From a virus, in IMG/VR virus record IMGVR_UViG_3300022554_000002, positions 130,474 through 194,473 of that record: DNA of 64,000 nt, one strand, 5' to 3'. Shown piece after piece: positions 36,283-48,400 of the stretch; position 1 is the stretch's first letter; every line of letters begins with the position of its first letter. Under the pieces are notes generated by a model that made no database searches, was not told the origin of the DNA, and was given only the letters and a program-made list of their open reading frames with translations. The translations under genes and the position numbers were made by a program.

Positions 36283-39200
36283 TTATTCCCAATAAACTTT
36301 ACCAGATACAGAACCAACACACCGAGTCAAACCCATATCTCGCATAATGCTATTCCTACAACGTGCAGCATTATTTGCACGTTGTGTCTTGCGACGTGCA
36401 TTGACTGCCTTCTGAAAGCTTTGCGAACCAGCAGAAATTGCTTCACTCTGCGTACAGGTTCCCTTTGCAGACATTGCCCAAAGATAAGCAAACTCTGCAT
36501 TATCATGGCATTCTTGCGAAAGAATCTGAACCCATTCGTTCTTACTCATTGTTTCGATCCCTCTCTCTCTGCTTACATTGTACGACTAACTTTAGCAATG
36601 TCAAGAACTATTATCAAGATATTACAAATTGGCACTAATGCCATTTGCTGCCATGCTGCAAGGCGATAGATGGCAGACTGCCATTGTCATACTTATTACA
36701 ACCGTTTGCTAAATGGCAGCAAGGTAAACGTTACTACAGGTAAGACAGGTGAATACTTCACGAGTCAACAGACAGGCATTCAAAGATTCTCAAAGTTAGT
36801 TCTTGACTTTGGCATTCTCATCTGTACAATGTAGACAGAAGACAACTTAATGGAGTAACGAACGGGGTGAAGGTAGGGTAGCCGTGAAGGTACAAGCGGG
36901 AAACTCTACAACACATTGTGCAATTGGAATGGAATTCCCCGCTCACACATTCATGGATTCCCGATACGTTTCCCCATTCATTCCCAATCGTATTTAGTTG
37001 TCTTTTCTATTTGAATTATACAATGAGAGATTCCCAAAGTCAAGGGGAATCTCTCATGATTTTTACTGTCTCACGGTTCTTACAAATTCATAACCTTCGC
37101 CATTAATGTCAATAGTGTAACCAGCATGGTCGTCATTCTTTGCCCACAATTCAAACACGCTAGAATCGTCATTGTCTTGAAGGATTACCATATCCTTGTC
37201 TTTCCACCCCGCAACGTGCATTCCTGATTCACTAATCGGTTCTCGGTTCTGACTTCCACGTTTCGTAATCATGATCAATCCCTCTCTTTCTTAATTACAT
37301 TATACAATGAGAGATTCCCAAAGTCAAGGGGAATCTCTCACGATTTTGAAAAGTCATAAGTCTAACGGTTTTGTTCAATAAACGTCTTTAAAGCTTCCAC
37401 GTGCATAGGAATAGTATTCATCAAGGGGTTAGACTGACTCTTATGCTTGCTAGTCGTTACAGAATACTTGCTGATATTCTCATACCAAAAGCCACAATCA
37501 GAACAGACAAACAACGGCCAGTGATGGCCATAACTGTATACAACATAAAGGTTTCCATCCTGTGCACCAAACAGGTTATTAGCCTTGAATGGCTTCCGTT
37601 CCTGCACAAACTTCCGAGCGTTCCGGTTTGCAATCTTCATGTTTGATCCGTCCTTTCTTAATTACATTATACATGGGAGATTCCCCAAAGTCAAGGGGAA
37701 TCTCTCACATTTGTTATTTATGCAATGTTTTGAAGAATTGATAGAGTATTGACAAGTTGGGAAACATTTTCACCGCGACTGTTGATAAATTCCAAGTCTT
37801 TCTTCAAAAGCTTAATAAACCGAGTTTTCCAATTGCCACTAACAAACAAACTAAGATAAAAGGGTATTCCGTCTTCTGCTCGTTTTGTAATATTTTGAAT
37901 TCGTCCTACCATTTTACTATTCCAATGTGCCCACACAATCTTACCATTTTTATTTGATTCAACAATATCACCAAGAGAAATATGTGCAGAAACACTATAC
38001 CGGCGAACGTAATCATACCCTGCCCAATCAAAGAAATAGCGAAGGGTAAACTTTCCAATTTGAATTGTATACTCTGTACACCAACTACTCTTTTGTCTTT
38101 TTGCCATAAATCCAAGTGCACGAAAGAACTTAGTTACATCTTTCACGTCACCATTAATTAGCTTAGGCATTTTCTTCTCCTTTGATCTTTGTTCTTCACA
38201 CATTTACAGTATACAAGTAAGACTGTCATTTGTCAAGTTTAATTTATTACAAACTTTTTCCTTGACAAACAGACTTTCCACTTGTACAATAAAAATAGAA
38301 AGACAATCGAATAGGTGAGAACTACCAGAATGGGGAAACGTATCGGGTATCCATGAACGTAAGAGCGGGAAACTCTATTTTAAAAAATCTAATCATTCCA
38401 CAGTCGGACGGCATGCCATTTTGACACGGTTGGCACCATGTCATTTTGACACGGTTTTATTGTCATAATGACATTAATGCCATTCGTTGCACATTGTGAT
38501 CATGTCAAAATGATATGGTCATTCTGACATGATTCGTAACTTGTAATAATCTTATCGTGCCATAATGACAATAGAGTTTGTCAAAATGGCGTGTAGGATT
38601 ATCAAATCTGTAAATTTGTTACAAATGGTAGTCTGTTACAATCCTTTCTCGGACCATAACAGACTACCACAACCTACATATTACATTCTACAGACTGACT
38701 AACCATTTGTCAAGGTAAATTGTGGATAATTCCTAATTGGGCTATGGTTACAGTATTTTTGCACAAACTCCAAACTAATGCCCTTAGCCTTACAAGTTTC
38801 CACAAACGTTGTTGCGTCACAGTCTTCTTCCAAGTAAACCGTCTTACCCTTCTGATAAGAATAAGGCGTAATCTTATCAAGAATGCCTAACGTGACAAGC
38901 AATTCCCTTTTGACTGCCATCCACCCATGTCCTGCATCCGAGTAAAATTTAACTTTCATGTTTTGATCCATCCTTTCTACTTACATTCTACAATTAACTT
39001 TAGCAATGTCAAGAACCAAATATTACATTTCCAGTCCAGTACTCGAATACGTTAATGCCTGAATTGATATTTCTCCCTTTCCTCTGATTCACATATTCTC
39101 GTGCCTGATTGTACGTATCAAAATTCGCTACAAGTTCACTGTTATGAAACACATTAAAGGTCCGGTCATTGCTGCGTTTGATCGTGAAGTTCATCTTTCT

Positions 39201-42200
39201 TCCCTCTCTTTCTTAATTACATTATACAGAGAGAGATTTTAAATGTCAAGAACTATTATTACAAATTTAAATCCTTGATATGATTAGACTTAGCTTTGTT
39301 GCGCGGGAAAGGTAGAAATTACAACCTTTATACTTATTCTAAAGGCAATACGTGAGACTACCCTATTATATTAGGATAATCTCACGATTTGCATTATTTA
39401 ATTAAGTATTAAACACCTTTACATACTCGTTCTTAGTCAATAGCCTAACACCAAACGTCTCAGCATTATTATACTTCATCGCATCACGCCAGCAACAACC
39501 GTCACTCAAACTAATAAGAATATTAGAATCTCCCCGCATAACTATTACACCCTTGTTTGCTGCAACCAGATGATTCACGATAACACCCACTTGCCCAAAT
39601 TCCATTTTTGCAGGACAAACTAAAACTTCACTTTGTGTTCCGTATAATGCGCAAGCCATTGTTTTTTCCCTACCTTTCTTATTTACATTGTACAGGCAAC
39701 TTGTAATAAGTCAAGAAATTAATCCCTAAAAGGACCAAGAGCAGAATTTACTTCACTCAAATCATGTTGTATCTTTTCTCGCTCTGCCAGCAGGTTTTCT
39801 ACCTGTTCCACGGTGTAATAATCTGGCAGGTTAATAGGAGCGTACAGGTTTTTAATGATAGCATTGTCAAGACGGGCCACATACACCGGAATCTCTTGAT
39901 AGACGCAACCGCAGGCACCTTCTACCTGTTCCCAAGTTTTAACTGTCCAGCCAAGGGAATAGTCAGAATTATGTTTATAAATCTGCACATTGACCGGCAG
40001 GTTATTGAATTTTGGCAGCAATTCCTTAACCGCCAAAAGAAGGCTTCCGTCTGCCTTCAAAACCTTTTTTCCCACGTATCCGGCAAAAAATTCCTGCATC
40101 TTGTCATTGACAATCTTTGCGTAGTCAATGCACCGATTGTACGCTTTCACCTTTGCAGCCAGTTCGTTCTTGTTCATGTTTTGATCCGTCCTTTCTTAAT
40201 TACATTGTACAGACTGAAAAGGTAAAAGTCAAGAATTATTTATTACAAAATATCTGGCAAATTATTCTCACAAATTCCACCATGTTTTTTAATTAATTCA
40301 TGAATTACACTAACTGGCACGTAACCATAAACAGTCATACAAGGATTTTCTGGAGTTTCTGCATAAGGCAACAACAATTCTTCTACCTGATTAGGGTATC
40401 CCAATTCTACTTCTGTATAAGGCCCAACATCATACCTTGGTGTACAGTAATGCGTACTAGACGCTTGTATGCTTACTGAAAATCCATCGTTGAACACGGT
40501 TATTTTGTTTAGCTCTTTCATGTTTCCCACCTTTCTTAATTACATTACACGGCTAACTTCAAGAATGTCAAGAATTATCTAACATAAATCCTAGTCTCAA
40601 CCGTTTGACAATCCAGTACCTTAAACTTCTCTTGCAGCATAGCCTTTATGGTATCTTCGGAAATATTCCCCATTGTCTGTATCGTTACCTTAAACTCAAT
40701 AACCTTATGGTCTTGCATATGACAATTGTTGTCTGTCACAGGCTGACCGTTGTTTGCATACAGAATCTTAACCTTATCCATGATCAAATCCTCTCTTTCT
40801 TAATTACATTATACAAATGAGAATACCATTTGTCAAATGGTAACTAGGAATTTTCCAAGATTAATTGTATTGTCTTTGTAATCAAGGCCAGAATCTTTCA
40901 GAATTCGTTCTGTCTGCTTTGTGGCACTAATGGCAAAGGTTGTGCCAGAAATGCCCACATTCTGAATTGAAACAGCAAAATCATGAGCATAGTCGTCAGG
41001 TTCAACGACAATGGCAGTCAGTCCATAGTATCCAACCGACCGATACTCCAACACGTCAAGATTCAGAAGACTACAAAACTCGGTCAGCAATTCTTGCCTT
41101 GACATGGTTTTGATCCTCTCTTTCTTAATTACATTATATGGACAACAAGGGTAAATGTCAAGTTTATTATTTATTTTTCCTGTTACCGTGAAAAAGAATC
41201 TCTATCGTTTTTCCGCTCACAATACGGCAAATATTGCATGTTTTACAGTTACCTTGACACAGGAAATTATTGCCGGTTGGCTGTTTTACAGGTTTAAATC
41301 TATTTGTATCATTCTTATACCTTTCGCTGTCTCCGCTCAAGTTAAGGCTAACACCTAGTGCAATCAATTGTGACAAGTCAAGGTCAATTCTGGCAGTATA
41401 CCCGTAAATTTTCCAGCCATACGTGATTAATCTAGAAGCAAAGAAAGCAAAGAGATTAACCTGTGCCTGATTAACAAAATCTCCTGCCTCATTGAATCGC
41501 AATACCTTATCTTTTCCCTGTGTCTTACGTCTATTCCTTTGCAATTCCAATTCGTCCGCACATTTCAATACATCTTTTAGTGTAGCTTTTTTCCACCATT
41601 TCATTTGTTTAAGTCTATAGGGTAAAACCTGTTTATACATTTCTTCGGCATGTAAAGCATAGCAATTATTTGGGCATTGACACAATCCTAAAGCTTTAGA
41701 CGGGCAGCATTTAGCAGGGGTAAAATTAATAATTACAAATGGCACCTTAGTATTTCCAATTGAGTAAGGCAAGCCATTTGCATTCATCTTTGATCCTCTC
41801 TTTCTTAATTACAGTATACAGATGGGAATACTGTTTGTCAAGAGTATTTCTTGAAATTCTTGACAAATTCCTCATGTAGCTTTTTCCCGCTGTCCGGTAT
41901 AACCGTTGCCAGTTTAGGTTCTGTCTTAGCCAGTTCGGTTATCTCATTCGATGTCTTTTTGCCAGTAATGCCATTAGAGACTAGGGCAATATAGGCAATC
42001 GTACCCCACACCTTATCATTGTAATTGTCACTCTTCTTTAACTCGAAAATACGCACAGGATTAACCGATAGATTGCCAGCAGGTTTTCGGCCTTTACCAG
42101 TGTGAGGATTTTTGTCATAGTTCTTAATTACTCCCAGTTTTTCCATTTCGCTGAAAAGCCATTCTGAAAACATGGTTCTTTCCCTCATTCCTATTTACAG

Positions 42201-43076
42201 TATAAAGATGAAACTGTCATTTGTCAAGAATTATTACTTCAATTGCGGTCCTTTCTCCAAAAGCGTTACCATCGTATTAAATGGGAAAGTAGATTCTTCA
42301 TGCCCAATATAGGGTATTACGCTTGTATAGTTGTTTCCCCCATAAGAAAAGTCTGCCACGTGAATATATGGCCGAATTGTAGTAACCTCTTTCCGCTCTG
42401 TATTGATTTTGATTACTGTACAATGGGAATATGGATACTCGGCAAGTGTTACGATATCCCCAAGGTTTAGAAACTTTGCTTTTACTCCGCTTAGTGTCTT
42501 CATGTTTTTGATCCTCTCTTTCTTAATTACATTCTACGGGCATACTTGCCATTTGTCAAGTTTAATTTATTACAATCTTTTTTCTTGACTTTGGTATTCT
42601 CGTTTGTACAATGTAAATAGAGACAGACAACTTAACGCAGTACCGAACGGGGTGAAGGTAGGGTAGCCGTGAAGGTCGGAGCGGGAAACTCTATCGTGTC
42701 ATATTGACATGATATGAAAAAATTACCATGTCGTTTTGACATGGTAATCCTTGCTACCTATTCAATAATACTACAATATTACCTGCCCAACATGCACCTT
42801 ATTAGTAATATCAATAATGCTCAACGTAGCGTACACCTTGCTATCGTCCTTTTTCAATTGATTAGTCAATCCAACAAACTCCCAAAAGGTTTCCCAAGCT
42901 TTCTCTTCGGAATCATGCACAATAACCGTGCCACTAAACATGCGGCGAATTGCTCTAGTTATTGCATCCTCATTAAGAGTAGCAAGCACAAGTCGGAAAA
43001 TTTCGCTTCGCTTTGTCGTTGTTTCCATTCCCTTAGTATTCATCTTTGATCCTCTCTTTCTATTTGAATTGTACAA
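36283..43076 (-). CDS. Array of single small genes, most behind their own promoter/RBS module
   Basis: ORFs 36283, 37063, 37362, 37718, 38699, 39009, 39402, 39719, 40243, 40575, 40833, 41167, 41838, 42234, 42771; recurring upstream TTGAC(A/T)-N17-TA(T/C)AAT-GTAATTAAGAAAG..AGG. Confidence 0.75.
36841..36907 (+). ncRNA. Conserved G-rich element, copy A (candidate ncRNA)
   Basis: Starts just after promoter TTGACT 36803 / TACAAT 36825; GACAAC...GAACGGGG...GGGTAGCCGTGAA...GCGGGAAACTCT; no ORF. Confidence 0.6.
36931..37002 (-). ncRNA. Conserved G-rich element, copy B
   Basis: Minus strand GACAAC...GAATGGGGAAACGTATCGGGAATCCATGAA...GAGCGGGGAATTCC after promoter 37043-37015. Confidence 0.6.
37023..37707 (-). 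promoter_or_regulatory. Three stem-loop promoters (37023-37057, 37308-37340, 37674-37707)
   Basis: TGAGAGATTCCC-AAAGTCAAG-GGGAATCTCTCA palindromes with the minus-strand TTGACT -35 box in the loop. Confidence 0.85.
38302..38376 (+). ncRNA. Conserved G-rich element, copy C
   Basis: After promoter TTGACA 38262 / TACAAT 38285; GAATGGGGAAACGTATCGGGTATCCATGAA...GCGGGAAACTCT. Confidence 0.6.
38414..38591. repeat. Array of seven TG(T/C)CA-N3-TGACA-like palindromes
   Basis: Sites at 38414, 38439, 38461, 38503, 38517, 38558 and 38579 in non-coding DNA; 13-bp inverted repeat at 38626-38669 follows. Confidence 0.85.
41167..41787 (-). CDS. Phage Gp88-like Cys-rich protein
   Basis: PAKCCP...CPNNCYA, LRFNEAGDF, YGYT, C-terminal CQGNCKTCNIC. 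Confidence 0.6.
   Translation of the reverse strand: MNANGLPYSIGNTKVPFVIINFTPAKCCPSKALGLCQCPNNCYALHAEEMYKQVLPYRLKQMKWWKKATLKDVLKCADELELQRNRRKTQGKDKVLRFNEAGDFVNQAQVNLFAFFASRLITYGWKIYGYTARIDLDLSQLIALGVSLNLSGDSERYKNDTNRFKPVKQPTGNNFLCQGNCKTCNICRIVSGKTIEILFHGNRKNK
42626..42692 (+). ncRNA. Conserved G-rich element, copy D
   Basis: After promoter TTGACT 42585 / TACAAT 42607; near-identical to copy A; followed by TGTCATATTGACA (42697) and TGTCGTTTTGACA (42729). Confidence 0.6.
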
Positions 43077-43136
43077 ACGAGAATGCCAAAGTCAAGGAAT
43101 TAGTTAAAGAAAATTATTACAGAAAAGAATTGACTT

Positions 43137-44723
43137 TTGAATTCTTGTCTTTATAATGTGAGTAAAGGGAGAATGAAAATGAAGATCAAGAAATTCAGCA
43201 AGCTTCAAGAGAACGGTTTTGATGCGGTTTCTAACTCCGCTGAAAACCTTTTCTTGTCTGCCGTTGCTGGTAGCGGTAAGACGACTTGGCTAGTTGAAGC
43301 TTGCAAGCGTTTGCCCTTGTCCGTCAAGGCTGTTTTTTGTGCCTTCAATAAGCATATTGCGGATGAATTGCGTGGTAAGCTTCCCAAGAATGTTCCTGCC
43401 GCTACGCTGCATAGCCTTGGCTTTGCCACTATTCGCCAGAATCTTGCTAATGCTGTTCATGTTTGTGAGGATAAGACTGACCGAATTTTGGAACAGTTCA
43501 TTAAGGTTGAATCAGAAGAATACAAGTTTAATGCTGCACCTATCAAGAAACTGGTTAGCCTTGCCAAGAATAACTACATGGTGAAACCGGAAAAGGCTGA
43601 CTGGGATAGCCTAATTGAACAGTATGGTGTGATTCTCCCTAACGGTTCTTTCGATTGGACTGCTCTTAATGAGACGTATGCTTTGGCTACTGCAAGGCAG
43701 TATAAGGCAAAGCTTTATAACAAATTCTTTAAGCGTGAAGTAGAATTGCCCGTCATTGATTTCGATGATATGCTTTTCTATCCGGCAATTGAAGGTTGGA
43801 ATATTGCTAAAAATCTCAATTGTCTCTTTGTTGACGAATCACAGGATTTGAATGCGGTTCAGATTAAGCTTTTGGAAACTGCCAATAAGAATGGTACTCG
43901 CATCATTTGCGTAGGTGACTCTGCACAGGCTATCTATGGTTTCAGGGGTGCAAGCATTGAAAGCATTGATAACCTTACTAACCTGTTTAACATGAAGACG
44001 TTGCCGTTGTCGGTTACCTATCGTTGCAGTAAGGCAGTAGTCGAATACGCTAAACGATACGTGCCTGAAATTGAAGCTAGGGAAGGTGCGCCGGAAGGTA
44101 ATGTTTCGGAAATTAGTTTGGCTAATTTAAAGGTTGAAAGCTTCCGGCATGGTGATTTGGTTGTTTGCCGCACTAATGCTCCGCTTGTCGGTTTGGCTTA
44201 TGCTTTGCTCCGTTTGAATAGTGGCATTAAATTCCGCATTCAAGGCGTGGAATTGGGGCAGGAATTGGGCAGACTTGTGGGTTATCTTACCTTCAAGAAT
44301 AACCTGCAAGACGTTGATATGGCTGGATTTATGAAGGCATTGTCCGTCTATGAACAGCATATGACCGAGAAATACATGCAACTTAAGGCTAACGGAGAAA
44401 AATATATTGCGGAATTGCAGGATAAGCTTGAAGTTATTTCCCTTGTCGCTGGTAATTCCAAAACCATTTCGGGAATCAAAATTAACCTGTGCAAGCTTTT
44501 CGCGGATAGTGACGACCGAAATTGTGTTTTGCTGTCGTCTATCCATCGTGCAAAAGGTTTGGAAGTCCTTGCGGAAGATAATACTTGTATCGTTCTTCGG
44601 ACTGACTTGCTGCCACATCCTAAAGCTACACGAGACTGGGAATTGATTCAAGAGTCTAACCTTATCTATGTGGCTTATACCCGCGCCAAGTCTAATCTGG
44701 TTTTGGTGCATAAGGAAAAATAA
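43137..44723 (+). CDS. UvrD/Rep-like superfamily 1 helicase
   Basis: AVAGSGKTT, FVDESQD, VGDSAQAIYGFRGA, LSVTYRC, SSIHRAKGLE, YVAYTRAK. Confidence 0.92.
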   Translation: MNSCLYNVSKGRMKMKIKKFSKLQENGFDAVSNSAENLFLSAVAGSGKTTWLVEACKRLPLSVKAVFCAFNKHIADELRGKLPKNVPAATLHSLGFATIRQNLANAVHVCEDKTDRILEQFIKVESEEYKFNAAPIKKLVSLAKNNYMVKPEKADWDSLIEQYGVILPNGSFDWTALNETYALATARQYKAKLYNKFFKREVELPVIDFDDMLFYPAIEGWNIAKNLNCLFVDESQDLNAVQIKLLETANKNGTRIICVGDSAQAIYGFRGASIESIDNLTNLFNMKTLPLSVTYRCSKAVVEYAKRYVPEIEAREGAPEGNVSEISLANLKVESFRHGDLVVCRTNAPLVGLAYALLRLNSGIKFRIQGVELGQELGRLVGYLTFKNNLQDVDMAGFMKALSVYEQHMTEKYMQLKANGEKYIAELQDKLEVISLVAGNSKTISGIKINLCKLFADSDDRNCVLLSSIHRAKGLEVLAEDNTCIVLRTDLLPHPKATRDWELIQESNLIYVAYTRAKSNLVLVHKEK

Positions 44724-45061
44724 AAAAATATTTTTTTCTTGACTTTTTAATTTTTTGATGTATAATTACAATATAGAAAGTGAGGATTTGAAATGGATGA
44801 AATGATCAGAGAACGAAAATTGCTTCGCCCCTGTTGGAGTTGGGAATTCAGGGGTAAAGCAGATAAGAAAATTAATCGTCGGATTGTGCGACATAGAATG
44901 AAACAAAGAGACAGAAAAAATAACTTGACAGATTGAACTAAAACAGGGGGTCGGAGTTAGAGATTTAATGTGGTAAACAATCCACAGTCTCGAAACGATG
45001 TATCCCCTTATTTTTTAAAAAAAATAAAAAATATTTTTTTCTTTCCCTTAAAATATTTTAG

Positions 45062-45134
45062 GGTCTTTTTCCCCCTCATTTCCCCACTCACGGATACCCT
45101 AACTTCACCCCGTTCGGTACTGCATTAGGTTGTC
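45062..45134 (-). ncRNA. Conserved G-rich element, copy E (divergent 3' end)
   Basis: Minus strand GACAACCTAATGCAGTACCGAACGGGGTGAAGTTAGGGTATCCGTGAGTGGGG after promoter 45176-45148. Confidence 0.55.
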
Positions 45135-45252
45135 TGTCTCTATTTACATTGTACAGGCAAAAGTATCATTTGTCAAGAAAAAATAAAAAATATTTTTTTC
45201 TTGACTTTTTAAATTTTAGCTGTACAATTTTAATATGACAAGTGAATAAGTC

Positions 45253-45422
45253 GGGGGTGTAGCCTAGAGGACAGGCGATACTTGCGTATTATGGCAAGTG
45301 AGTATAATGACTGCGCTAACAGCATTATATAAACTGCGATAATGCAAAAAACAGGTAACTAATAGCTTTAGCGAGTTATTACTATCTGCGTATAGACGCT
45401 GGTTCGATTCCAGCCACCCCCT
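45253..45422 (+). ncRNA. tRNA-like RNA with a roughly 105-nt structured insert replacing the anticodon loop
   Basis: Acceptor GGGGGTG/CACCCCC, D-arm GCCT-AGAGGAC-AGGC, T-arm GCTGG-TTCGATT-CCAGC; own promoter upstream. Confidence 0.8.
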
Positions 45423-45482
45423 GCCTTTTTAAAAATAATTCTTGACAAATACCTATCTTGAGCGTATAATATAGATAGGAGA

Positions 45483-48400
45483 ATGGAAATGATTTTTCAT
45501 AGCTTTAAAGATTTGGTAGTTTTCCTTGAAAAAAAGATGTATGTTGAATATGGTGAAGCTTTTACAATGGCTTGGGAATTAGTAGTAAGTAAGGAAATAC
45601 TTTGGGATAGTGAATCAAAAGGTTACATTTGGCCTAGTAATTTAACAGATGAAATGCTATATGATGTACTGGATATTGGATTAGAGAAAGAAATGTTGCC
45701 TTTCTAAAAGGAAATAAAAAATGTCAAATATCTTAGTTTCTACTACTGCTGAACAACATGGATATGGAAGTGACCCATACAAACATGTATCTCGTCTAAC
45801 AAAAGAAGAACAAGAACATGTGAAAAAGGGTGGAATTGTAATTTTTAAATCCGAGCGAAAGTCTGGTGGGCTTTATCATGGAACGTATTGGCGAGTAGTG
45901 CGCTATCATCGTAAATATGGCTATTTTCCAAGGGTTGCTAGTCCTGAAGATGTAAAAGCTATGGGATTTGAATATTGAGAATATTTCTTGACAAATGACA
46001 ATTAAAGCTGTATAATGTAAATAAGAAAGGTAGGGAAAAAACAATGCCTGCGACTCCAATGGTAGTTCTTCCTACTAAGGCAAGAATTGAAAGATTGCCT
46101 GAAGAAACTCTTGCTATTACATATCCAGCCAAGTTTGGCGAACATTTGAAGATTAGTTTCCTGTTTGAAAATAAGACGCACAAGTTTTTTCGCATGGATT
46201 ATTATAATACGTCAAATGAGAACAGGATTAGCCGTAGCTACTTCGTAGGTATGGATGTTAAGACAGGCATTCCGGTTAGGATGGATTATAATGCAAACGT
46301 CTAAGCGTAAACCTAAGAAGAAGTATAAGATAGGTTCCTATATTGACTATTATGGTATTGTACAGTCAATAGAGTGGGATTCTGATAATAAGGAATGGCT
46401 TTACCATACGCAAAAGTCTTTTTGGGAAGGTAAATATATGATGCAGCTAGAATTCCGAGAACGGTTTGAAAAGAATAGGGAATAATCATAAATTAATTCT
46501 TGACAAATGCTATTATTGCCTGTATACTATAAATAAGAAAGGTAGGATCAAATGGCATCTTACTGCACGATTAGTTTGAATGAAATGGAATCCTTTCTTG
46601 AAACTCGTGGTTTTCACCAAGTGAATGTTGATAAATGCCAAGAATTGGTTTGGGAAAAGGTTTCCAAACAGGATGGAAGGCTTGCATTGCGTGTTTATAG
46701 TTCACTGACTAACGGTGTTTCTCGCGGAGTCGGTGAAGATGCTATCCGTATCGTCATTTGGGATTATTCTATTAGTCGTCCGGTTACAGGTGCAATTCGT
46801 ACTAATCGTGTAGCTGGCTGGCAGGATAGAATGCTTGCCAAGCTTAAGAGTCTGGCATCTTCTTTTAAATTTGCCAAGTGTCCTCATTGTGGGAATTATA
46901 TGATGGAACGGAGTGGGAAGTATGGAACGTTTTTGGGCTGTTCCAATTTTCCCAATTGTAAACACATTGCTGCGAAAGGAATGTAAAAATGGATAAAGCT
47001 AATCTTAAAGACGGAATTGAAATTCCTTTTGTGGTTAAACAAAAATATCCACAGGAAGAACGAACATTGCTGTTTATAATTTTTCAAAGCAATGATGGTA
47101 AAGGTTGCTATTTAGAAGAAGTATTAAAAAATAAAACTGTAAAAATTGCTTCTAATAGTTCTTTTTATAAAATTGCGGGTATTCTTAAAAATATGGGTGC
47201 AGTACCCAAAAATTTTGGGGAATATGTAACTGATTATTTCAAATATAATGATGCTCCAAAGAGTACTCATAGAGATAATTGGTAAGATAATTCTTGACAA
47301 GGTTAATCTTTCTTTGTATAATATAATTAAGAAAGGAATTACAAAGATGATTAACGAAATGGATCTTGTTTCTCGGTTTCCTGATTTTCGGACTCTGATC
47401 AATTCGCTGCCAAAGACTCCGAATTTTAAACCTTACGTAGAGTCTGCCGACACGCAAAACAATCCTCATCAGACTAAGGAATGGGCGCAGGAACGTGTTA
47501 ATCACTGGTGGAATGTTGCAATTTCTAAGTTTGCTCCAAGATTCATTAATCGGCATGATGCACCAAGAGTGCGATTTGATGATAGGATGAATGCCAGAAA
47601 TGGTGGCACTGCACATAGTGGTAAGCATCTTATCACTCTGACTACTCGTTACTTGCAGGAAGATGATTTTGAAAATACCATTGTGCATGAAGTATGCCAT
47701 ATTGTGGCAACTTATCATTTCGGAGCAAATTGTGCTCATAGTGCACGATGGAAAACTGTGATGCTCGCTACTGGCTACATTCCTCATCGTTGCCATACGT
47801 ATAACCTTGCCAAGTCTGCACTTACATGCAAGTGTGGGCATGATAATATTCTGGCAAACGTGGACATTATGAAGAAACTGAAACAGGGTATTACTACTTA
47901 TCGTTGTGAAAAGTGTAAGATGGTGCTTGAACTGCCAAAATCTTATGAATTGCATGGAATTACAAAATAGTTCTTGACAAAGGATAGTAATAGCCTTATA
48001 ATAGAAATAGGAAAGGATTAAACAAATGCCAAAATGTAGAGATTGTGATAATGAGGCAGTACACGTAGATGAATGTTCTGGTTTGGCATTTTGTAAATCT
48101 TGTGAAGAGTCTGATTATCAAGAATGGTTTTGGAACGAACGTGCAAGAGAATATTGGCTGAAATGAATTAAATGTGATGATTGCAGTGGCTATCAAGAGT
48201 GGTGTACTTGTTGTGAAACATACACTAAAATTTGTTGTGTACCATATGGAACTTGTTTGTGTTCATAATGGATGATATTATTAAAAATTATCCTTGACAA
48301 ACCATACTTGAATTAGTATAATACATATAGAAAGGAATTCAAATATGGGATACACAGTTCATGCCTTTGAAAGAATTCAAAAGCGTCTGGTTGAAGCTGG

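Follow-up and report, generated by a model that had tools for sequence, protein, structure and literature searches.

The DNA analysed here is a stretch of 64,000 nucleotides (nt), referred to below as the window, which forms the last 64 kb of the 194,473-bp virus record IMGVR_UViG_3300022554_000002 (positions 130,474 to 194,473; 35% G+C). The part of interest is organised around a switch in gene orientation: a leftward block of one-promoter-one-gene cassettes extends from 34.7 to 43.04 kb, an intergenic region at 43044-43178 separates the leftward genes on its left from the rightward genes on its right, and the rightward block opens with a gene for a UvrD/PcrA-type superfamily 1 (SF1) helicase (43179-44723, + strand). 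Spread over 8.3 kb around this switch are five copies, A to E, of an undescribed G-rich non-coding element of about 75 bases for which Rfam holds no match. Such a family had been proposed in a preliminary description made from the sequence alone, and inspection, alignment and hidden Markov model (HMM) searches confirm all five copies at the sites given there.

Copies, motif and promoters

The alignment of the five window copies spans a promoter and ~75 nt downstream of it. In each copy the opening GACAA stands 10-13 nt past a TACAAT or TATAAT -10 box, in keeping with the short distance first described, and TTGAC(T/A) lies 16-17 bp further upstream, as in a sigma-70-type promoter; the element should therefore begin at about +4 to +7 of its transcript. 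The shared core motif is equally real, although its two parts had been written as only one base apart. Taken literally, that pattern has zero matches, whereas with the 8-9-nt gap that actually separates the two parts it occurs at exactly five sites in the whole genome, all of them inside the window. An nhmmer search of the 194-kb genome (--max, E up to 10) returns the same five copies only (E from 2e-18 to 3.6e-13), and recurrence on this scale within one genome is far beyond chance. The RNA-sense strand of the element is 31% G and 65% purine, compared with 16-19% G or C for the genome. Four copies end in GCGGG(A/G)AA, with E, which ends in GAGGGGGAAAAA, as the exception, and the arms of the conserved helix had been correctly read as ACGG/CCGT in A, D and E and ATGG/CCAT in B and C.

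Copies A and B converge, their 3' ends lying 18 nt apart. Element A (36836-36909, + strand, 72.7 bits) follows the promoter TTGACT-16-TACAAT at 36803-36830 (+). Element B (36928-37007, - strand, 65.8 bits), which carries the U-A variant of the helix, follows TTGACT-17-TATAAT at 37015-37043 (-), a member of a family of stem-loop promoter cassettes that also drives neighbouring protein genes. The promoter of element C (38297-38379, +, 64.4 bits), at 38262-38290 (+), stands back to back with a leftward gene promoter at 38236-38208. In element D (42619-42694, +, 73.5 bits) the helix arms occupy 42647-42650 and 42667-42670, with the invariant GA on their outer sides (42645-42646 and 42671-42672). 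Its promoter (42585-42612, +) is part of a divergent-promoter module; the module was reported to be duplicated between C and D, and the two versions, 38204-38266 and 42527-42589, are indeed 81% identical. Element E (45058-45141, -, 59.8 bits), behind TTGACA-17-TACAAT at 45148-45176 (-), has a second type of 3' end (GUGGGGAAAUGAGGGGGAAA), common to a copy in a related phage (L010, below).

The leader of a neighbouring tRNA-like RNA gene (45237-45252; GACAAGTGAATAAGTC, 9 nt past the -10 box) matches the element header GACAAYNGAAUAGG, and GACAAGTGAATAGGT is also present in the spacer of a promoter at 36279-36251. An A/T-rich segment of 41 nt (AAAAATAAAAAAATATTTTTTTC...) is present at three places, 44716-44756, 45019-45059 and 45178-45218, twice as an upstream promoter part and once as the tract entered by transcription of element E.

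After genes had been re-called with ribosome-site-aware open reading frame (ORF) calling, the statement that the copies run opposite to, or outside, local coding units was upheld: A, C and D oppose the leftward block, E opposes the rightward block, and B alone is co-directional with its neighbours; no window copy overlaps an ORF. What lies ahead of A, C, D and E is in each case the downstream end of a gene block, and most copies have no same-strand gene downstream. A + strand ORF after D proved spurious, the true gene being 42771-43043 on the - strand with its own promoter at 43095-43068. The element itself is not coding, since its forward frames are stop-rich and its core contains a 1-nt indel (8- versus 9-nt loop) between subtypes.

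Relatives and conservation

At the Rfam 15 gathering threshold only a tRNA and a group I intron are found in the window. With E up to 10, the interval 36500-45500 gives three chance-level partial overlaps of A/B, C or E (mir-281, MIR6140 and tpke11; 17-20 bits against thresholds of 43-140), none of which fits. Megablast and blastn searches of the phage GenBank records that were available found no match to the element, and pattern scans of IMG/VR and of GTDB (one genome per species, 185,579 prokaryote species) gave chance matches only, all dismissed by the HMM. Look-ups of the helicase and of rIIA in IMG/VR yielded no relatives, and no counterpart of the element was met in Rfam or in a limited literature search. 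The Rfam searches thus support the earlier view of an undescribed family.

Relatives were found in metagenomes. A pattern scan led to contig L006, and the helicase and a RadC-like neighbour used as anchors led to further short contigs of related phages, which were searched with a sequence-only model. Eleven further copies were located on eight contigs (L006, L008a, L008b, L009, L010, L132a, L132b, L135, L138, L139a and L139b, a and b marking copies on one contig). L135 and L138 hold one element in different flanks, and L139b is cut by the contig end; the total is 16 copies, 14 of them full-length and distinct, from at least five uncultivated phages. The element is absent from the searched stretches of L007, L133, L134, L136 and L137. 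The contig L131 comes from a relative that is further removed, its GP88 protein being 50% identical. It has no G-rich element, and the region before the GP88-like gene (430-1080) is taken up by a different, dense repeat array of ACAAGGATYT and its complement in at least eight copies.

Positional counterparts share 84-92% identity over the core, whereas the adjacent helicase genes, where seen (L008-L010), share 58-65% of their nucleotides and the mean for the 5' spacer of the element, taken over all pairs, is 54%, a disparity that indicates purifying selection on the non-coding element. All 15 copies with upstream sequence have a sigma-70-type promoter just upstream of a (G/A)ACAA start, which follows the -10 box by 10-13 nt in 13 copies, 16 nt in L009 and ~12 nt in L139a (the AACAA start). 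The convergent A/B pair is orthologous to L139b/L139a, the 3' half of A being near-identical to L139b.

The position of the element relative to genes varies between phages. In all four contigs that show the side upstream of the helicase gene (L008, L009, L010 and L132) an element lies there and is directed at the helicase; in L009 a distance of 127 nt, without a clear promoter in it, separates the element from the helicase start, and in L010 a separate promoter intervenes. A RadC/JAB-like gene adjoins a C-type or B-type element in relatives (L006 1207-1635, L008 3-389, L132 5879-6310, L135 1058-1489, L138 392-823, L139 78-506), the window having instead an unrelated 150-aa gene (37718-38170).

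RNA structure

RNAalifold predicts one helix, AYGG/CCRU, which pairs in 14/14 full copies (100% of cells), so that the covarying stem proposed from the window now holds across several phages. Its four pairs are A-U (13 copies) or G-U (one), C-G (nine) or U-A (five), and G-C in all 14 copies at each of the last two positions. The C-G/U-A exchange shows no half-changed intermediate among the 14 copies, and both variants are present within one genome. In a short tree of weak support the C-G copy L139a nests within the U-A group, which implies a double change at least once and possibly twice. An invariant GA...GA flanks the helix in every full copy and would be compatible with tandem sheared G-A pairs. 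A candidate third helix, P1 (ACC/GGU beyond the GA loop), which would be the canonical stem of a kink-turn, pairs in only 51% of cells in a fixed register and lacks support in that form, but is present in some copies (L008b and L132a).

A second, closing helix joins 5' GAAUAG to 3' CUAUU(Y) and pairs in 77% of cells, against 35-43% when the 3' partners of the two-helix model are slid. L009 carries a compensatory U-A to C-G change in it, and 0/500 shuffles reach the observed covariation score of the two-helix model. Copy C has a 6-bp version (GAAUAG/CUAUUU), and C-type copies possess an extra GGU-GAGA-AYY mini-hairpin. In A, D, E and B the closing helix is weak or missing, and other folds are more favourable by 9-17 kcal/mol; in A and D a stable alternative fold excludes the conserved helix, and this fold is unconserved in C-type copies.

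Two copies have gained hairpins at the same spot, between the invariant GGGG and GGG: one of 18 bp (42 nt) in L132b and one of 16 bp (33 nt) in L139a. Both leave the flanking motifs intact, and both contain 3-4 G-U pairs; the sense strand folds far better than the antisense (-25.5 versus -17.8 and -18.0 versus -7.1 kcal/mol). Optional hairpins at a fixed site, strand-specific wobbles and compensated changes together point to a folded transcript rather than a site in duplex DNA. Folding energies of single copies are no better than those of shuffled sequence (z from -1.5 to +1.5), and whichever RNA model is applied, the majority of the invariant bases stay unpaired. On balance, we consider it likely that the element is a folded RNA domain.

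Several known structures were considered and set aside. An RNA G-quadruplex is rejected: the copies conserve three G-tracts rather than four, pairing takes up two G's of the first one, and ViennaRNA, run with its quadruplex model, puts no quadruplex into the minimum-energy fold of any of the 14 copies. As a terminator, the hairpin GAG-CGGGAAA-CUC has just 2-4 bp and is unconserved. Resemblances to preQ1-I, mini-ykkC, a CRISPR-repeat mimic, a type III antitoxin mimic, a C/D box and a GAAA-receptor were judged by eye and misfit the B/C-type copies or Rfam. The AGCGG in the element equals the Chi sequence of B. subtilis, which we take as coincidence (a 5-mer, in a phage whose host is not identified).

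DNA entered by the transcripts

An intrinsic terminator follows the element in none of the 16 copies, as judged by a consensus scan for the window copies and, for the others, by looking for a G+C-rich hairpin with a U-run in the downstream sequence. What does follow, within 35 nt of 11 of the 16 copies, is a TGTCA-N3-TGACA palindrome (at most one mismatch), which in six copies begins 1-2 nt past the element. The C-type copies then have 6-10 palindromes over 200-300 bp, an arrangement also seen in L006, L008, L132, L135 and L138, and the D-type copies 1-2. In the window, a TGNCA-N3-TGNCA array at 38412-38595 begins 35 nt after C and comprises six members within one mismatch of TGTCA-N3-TGACA and a seventh, more degenerate one; two palindromes at offsets 2 and 34 directly follow D (42695-42745). 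Such palindromes are all but restricted to these places: the whole genome contains nine where 0.8 are expected, and six of the nine adjoin elements. Their half-sites (TGTCA, TGCCA, TGGCA) vary independently, which suggests putative double-stranded DNA sites for a dimeric protein rather than RNA hairpins.

Copies E and L010, which share the second 3'-end type, run into A+T-rich DNA (45010-45057 in the window, with an equivalent stretch after the element in L010) and not into palindromes. After A and B there is neither an intact palindrome nor an A+T-rich tract, and after L009 there is nothing of either kind. In L139 one intact palindrome lies between the 3' ends of the convergent pair; the spacer of A/B in the window lacks 16 bp, including the left half of the palindrome.

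The second palindrome after D (CCATGTCGTTTTGACATGG, 42714-42745) doubles as the terminator of the leftward gene 42771-43043, with its T-run on the minus strand, and palindrome-built terminators likewise occur in L008 and L132. Beyond the C array, transcription from a promoter that points leftward (TTGACA-17-TAGAAT, 38713-38685) would run at once into a hairpin of 13 bp (38669-38626) with a U-rich tail after it. The resulting transcript (38626-38713) would be tiny, terminator-closed and without an ORF; it converges on element C across the array, which is thereby bracketed by two promoters.

Genomic setting

The cumulative GC-skew minimum of the genome, at 173,533 (window 43060), falls at the switch in gene orientation between D and E, and minimum and maximum (genome 26231) coincide with the two gene-orientation switches. 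The phage encodes a family A DNA polymerase, and no family B polymerase was found. Neither Pfam nor PHROG assigns a function to the small proteins encoded near the element, and none of them could therefore be put forward as the palindrome-binding protein or as an initiator.

Discussion

The family is real and conserved, and its function would be either that of an origin or leader transcript or that of a phage small RNA. Both functions raised in the preliminary description, a small RNA and a primer transcript at replication origins, are thus still in play, with the weight now moved towards the second. We tentatively rank first a model in which the copies are cis-acting, origin-activating or primer transcripts of a replication-origin region at the strand switch, because this model alone joins the missing terminators, the conserved abutment of copies on palindromes or A+T-rich DNA, and a conserved convergent pair around a palindrome, in a region whose strand switch and GC-skew minimum lie by the helicase gene. 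The host RNA polymerase would produce short early transcripts that lack a terminator, with the element, from about +5 to +80, as their structured and purine-rich 5' domain, and these transcripts would act in cis on the DNA that they enter, as origin-activating or primer (R-loop-forming) RNAs. A phage protein may bind the palindromes, the G-rich RNA may stay hybridised to the C-rich template, and the phage family A DNA polymerase may then extend the RNA 3' end, with the convergent pairs A/B and D/E priming both strands.

The closest precedents are found in phage T4. The transcripts of oriF and oriG are retained as R-loops, from which the leading strand is primed. In oriE an early promoter and iterons occur together at a switch in transcription and skew, and this origin is sensitive to the Dda helicase (PMC3016281). 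The region described here resembles oriE in having a host-type early promoter that fires a non-coding or leader transcript into putative origin DNA, a repeat cluster after some copies, a switch in strand and skew, and an SF1 helicase gene alongside (oriE being especially dependent on Dda); two traits of T4-type origins, a promoter firing into the DNA and a site at a strand and skew switch, are thus present. The differences are considerable. The T4 iterons are 12-nt direct repeats, and the repeats of this phage are 13-18-bp palindromes; T4 origins share no motif and are spread over the genome, whereas here a ~75-nt element is 84-92% conserved, with conserved helices, and five units lie close together; this phage has a family A and not a family B polymerase; and there is no sequence homology. 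The comparison "as in T4" made at first is accordingly an analogy only, given that R-loops at oriF need no specific transcript sequence (PMC3016281) and the present element is strongly conserved in sequence.

Family A polymerases, the class present in this phage, extend transcripts at the origins of ColE1 and T7. ColE1 RNA II is a transcript of ~550 nt with a required fold and a G-rich hybrid segment, controlled by the antisense RNA I and cut by RNase H, and the primary origin of T7 consists of tandem promoters followed by A+T-rich DNA. A promoter-driven, folded, G-rich transcript in a phage with a family A polymerase recalls the former, and the A+T-rich DNA after copy E the latter. In contrast to ColE1, we saw no antisense regulator and found no RNase H gene, and neither ColE1 nor T7 has initiator palindromes. 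In oriV of RSF1010, iterons are combined with inverted, structured priming signals of ~40 nt, ssiA and ssiB, on opposite strands (PMC8567376). This inverted pair resembles the convergent pairs A/B (L139a/b) and D/E; the ssi signals, however, lack promoters and are hairpins of single-stranded DNA that a plasmid primase recognises, and here each unit has a sigma-70-type promoter.

A number of observations weigh against an origin. Phage GC skew largely follows gene orientation, which makes the GC-skew minimum weak evidence for an origin. None of the small genes nearby was recognisable as encoding a replication initiator, and no RNase H gene (PF00075) was found in the phage. Five units in 8.3 kb would be odd for origins. 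The invariant bases and conserved helices point to an RNA fold or partner that a primer model does not need, and the closing helix requires a CUAUU free of the polymerase, which it cannot be if transcription stops at an abutting, protein-bound palindrome. Finally, A and B have lost half of their palindrome, and L009 has none. A more novel version is a new type of phage origin, or origin switch, where the conserved, folded G-rich domain at the start of the early transcripts works with a protein bound to the abutting palindromes and decides whether the transcript becomes a primer; the domain would recruit that protein, be handed to it, or sense a ligand, and convergent pairs would prime both strands. 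We regard this more elaborate version as unlikely.

The main rival of the origin model, possible but doubtful and ranked only a little lower, is that the copies are multicopy, trans-acting small RNAs. Each promoter would give a short and abundant early RNA whose conserved purine-rich junction would bind a host or phage protein as a decoy or sponge, or pair with C/U-rich targets, and its 3' end would arise through RNA processing or where a protein on the palindromes blocks the polymerase. Qrr1-5, LhrC1-5 and CsrB are known for intrinsic terminators and repeated loop motifs. The element is like them in its several promoter-driven paralogues per genome and its conserved single-stranded motif, and it departs from them in having neither feature. 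Strong promoters driving five paralogues in one genome, covarying helices, optional hairpins at a fixed position that are stable on the sense strand only, and a header (GACAAYNGAAUA) common to the leader of the neighbouring tRNA-like RNA gene would all suit a free RNA, as would the differing gene-relative positions between phages, which make its function appear independent of downstream genes. Yet the pairing of promoter with terminator that would mark a discrete small RNA is seen in none of the 16 copies, a trans role does not predict the conserved abutment to DNA palindromes, folding energies equal those of shuffled sequence, and there is no Rfam match. Of the protein decoy that was first suggested in particular, nothing tested gives support; loop motifs repeated in the manner of CsrB or 6S are absent. 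A leader acting in cis, one that alters its own polymerase in the manner of HK022 put or senses a ligand or protein as a riboswitch does, and so governs whether transcription continues into the palindromes or the helicase gene, or runs antisense through the operons that it faces, strikes us as rather improbable. As with put, an RNA of ~70 nt directly follows early phage promoters and would act without a downstream ORF that belongs to it; but put has two stable stem-loops and precedes terminators and genes, and the present element, which mostly faces against genes, conserves no more than one 4-bp helix and a closing helix that is weak. The fixed place at the extreme 5' end of the transcript, a closing helix around a conserved purine-rich junction (the usual aptamer layout), the L009 copy close before its helicase gene, the orientation of A, C, D and E towards the downstream ends of gene blocks and the alternative fold of A and D would fit a leader. 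Set against this, no copy is followed by a terminator or a hairpin sequestering a ribosome site, most lack a same-strand downstream gene, L010 gives its helicase a separate promoter, and C-type copies do not keep the alternative fold.

Two further readings were considered. That the element works as DNA only, as duplex binding sites for a palindrome-binding protein or a regulator of early promoters with an incidental transcript, is suggested by the proximity of conserved blocks to clear palindromes of DNA-binding type and by the many invariant bases left unpaired. We hold it to be very improbable: insertions of 33 and 42 nt (L139a and L132b) would wreck the spacing of a duplex site and nevertheless leave the motifs intact, the inserts are hairpins whose G-U pairs work on the sense strand only, and the C-G to U-A double change occurs without an intermediate and in both forms within a genome. 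Scarcely credible is a functionless passenger of a mobile promoter cassette, comparable to the promoter-early stem-loop cassettes of T4. The region is assembled from duplicated promoter cassettes, and copies have shifted relative to genes between phages, but the excess conservation of the core over both the helicase gene and the 5' spacer indicates selection on the element itself.

Beyond T4 and T7 as models, the way in which large lytic phages begin replication is mostly unknown, and phages have yielded few conserved non-coding RNAs. The promoter, the 75-nt RNA domain and the palindrome array form a compact, clonable and directly assayable unit. If the origin model is true, this would be an unusual case of a priming transcript with a conserved fold; if the transcripts are free RNAs, they would constitute a new multicopy family of early phage RNAs. 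Either way, the element is an RNA motif new to Rfam, and one that annotation pipelines would miss.

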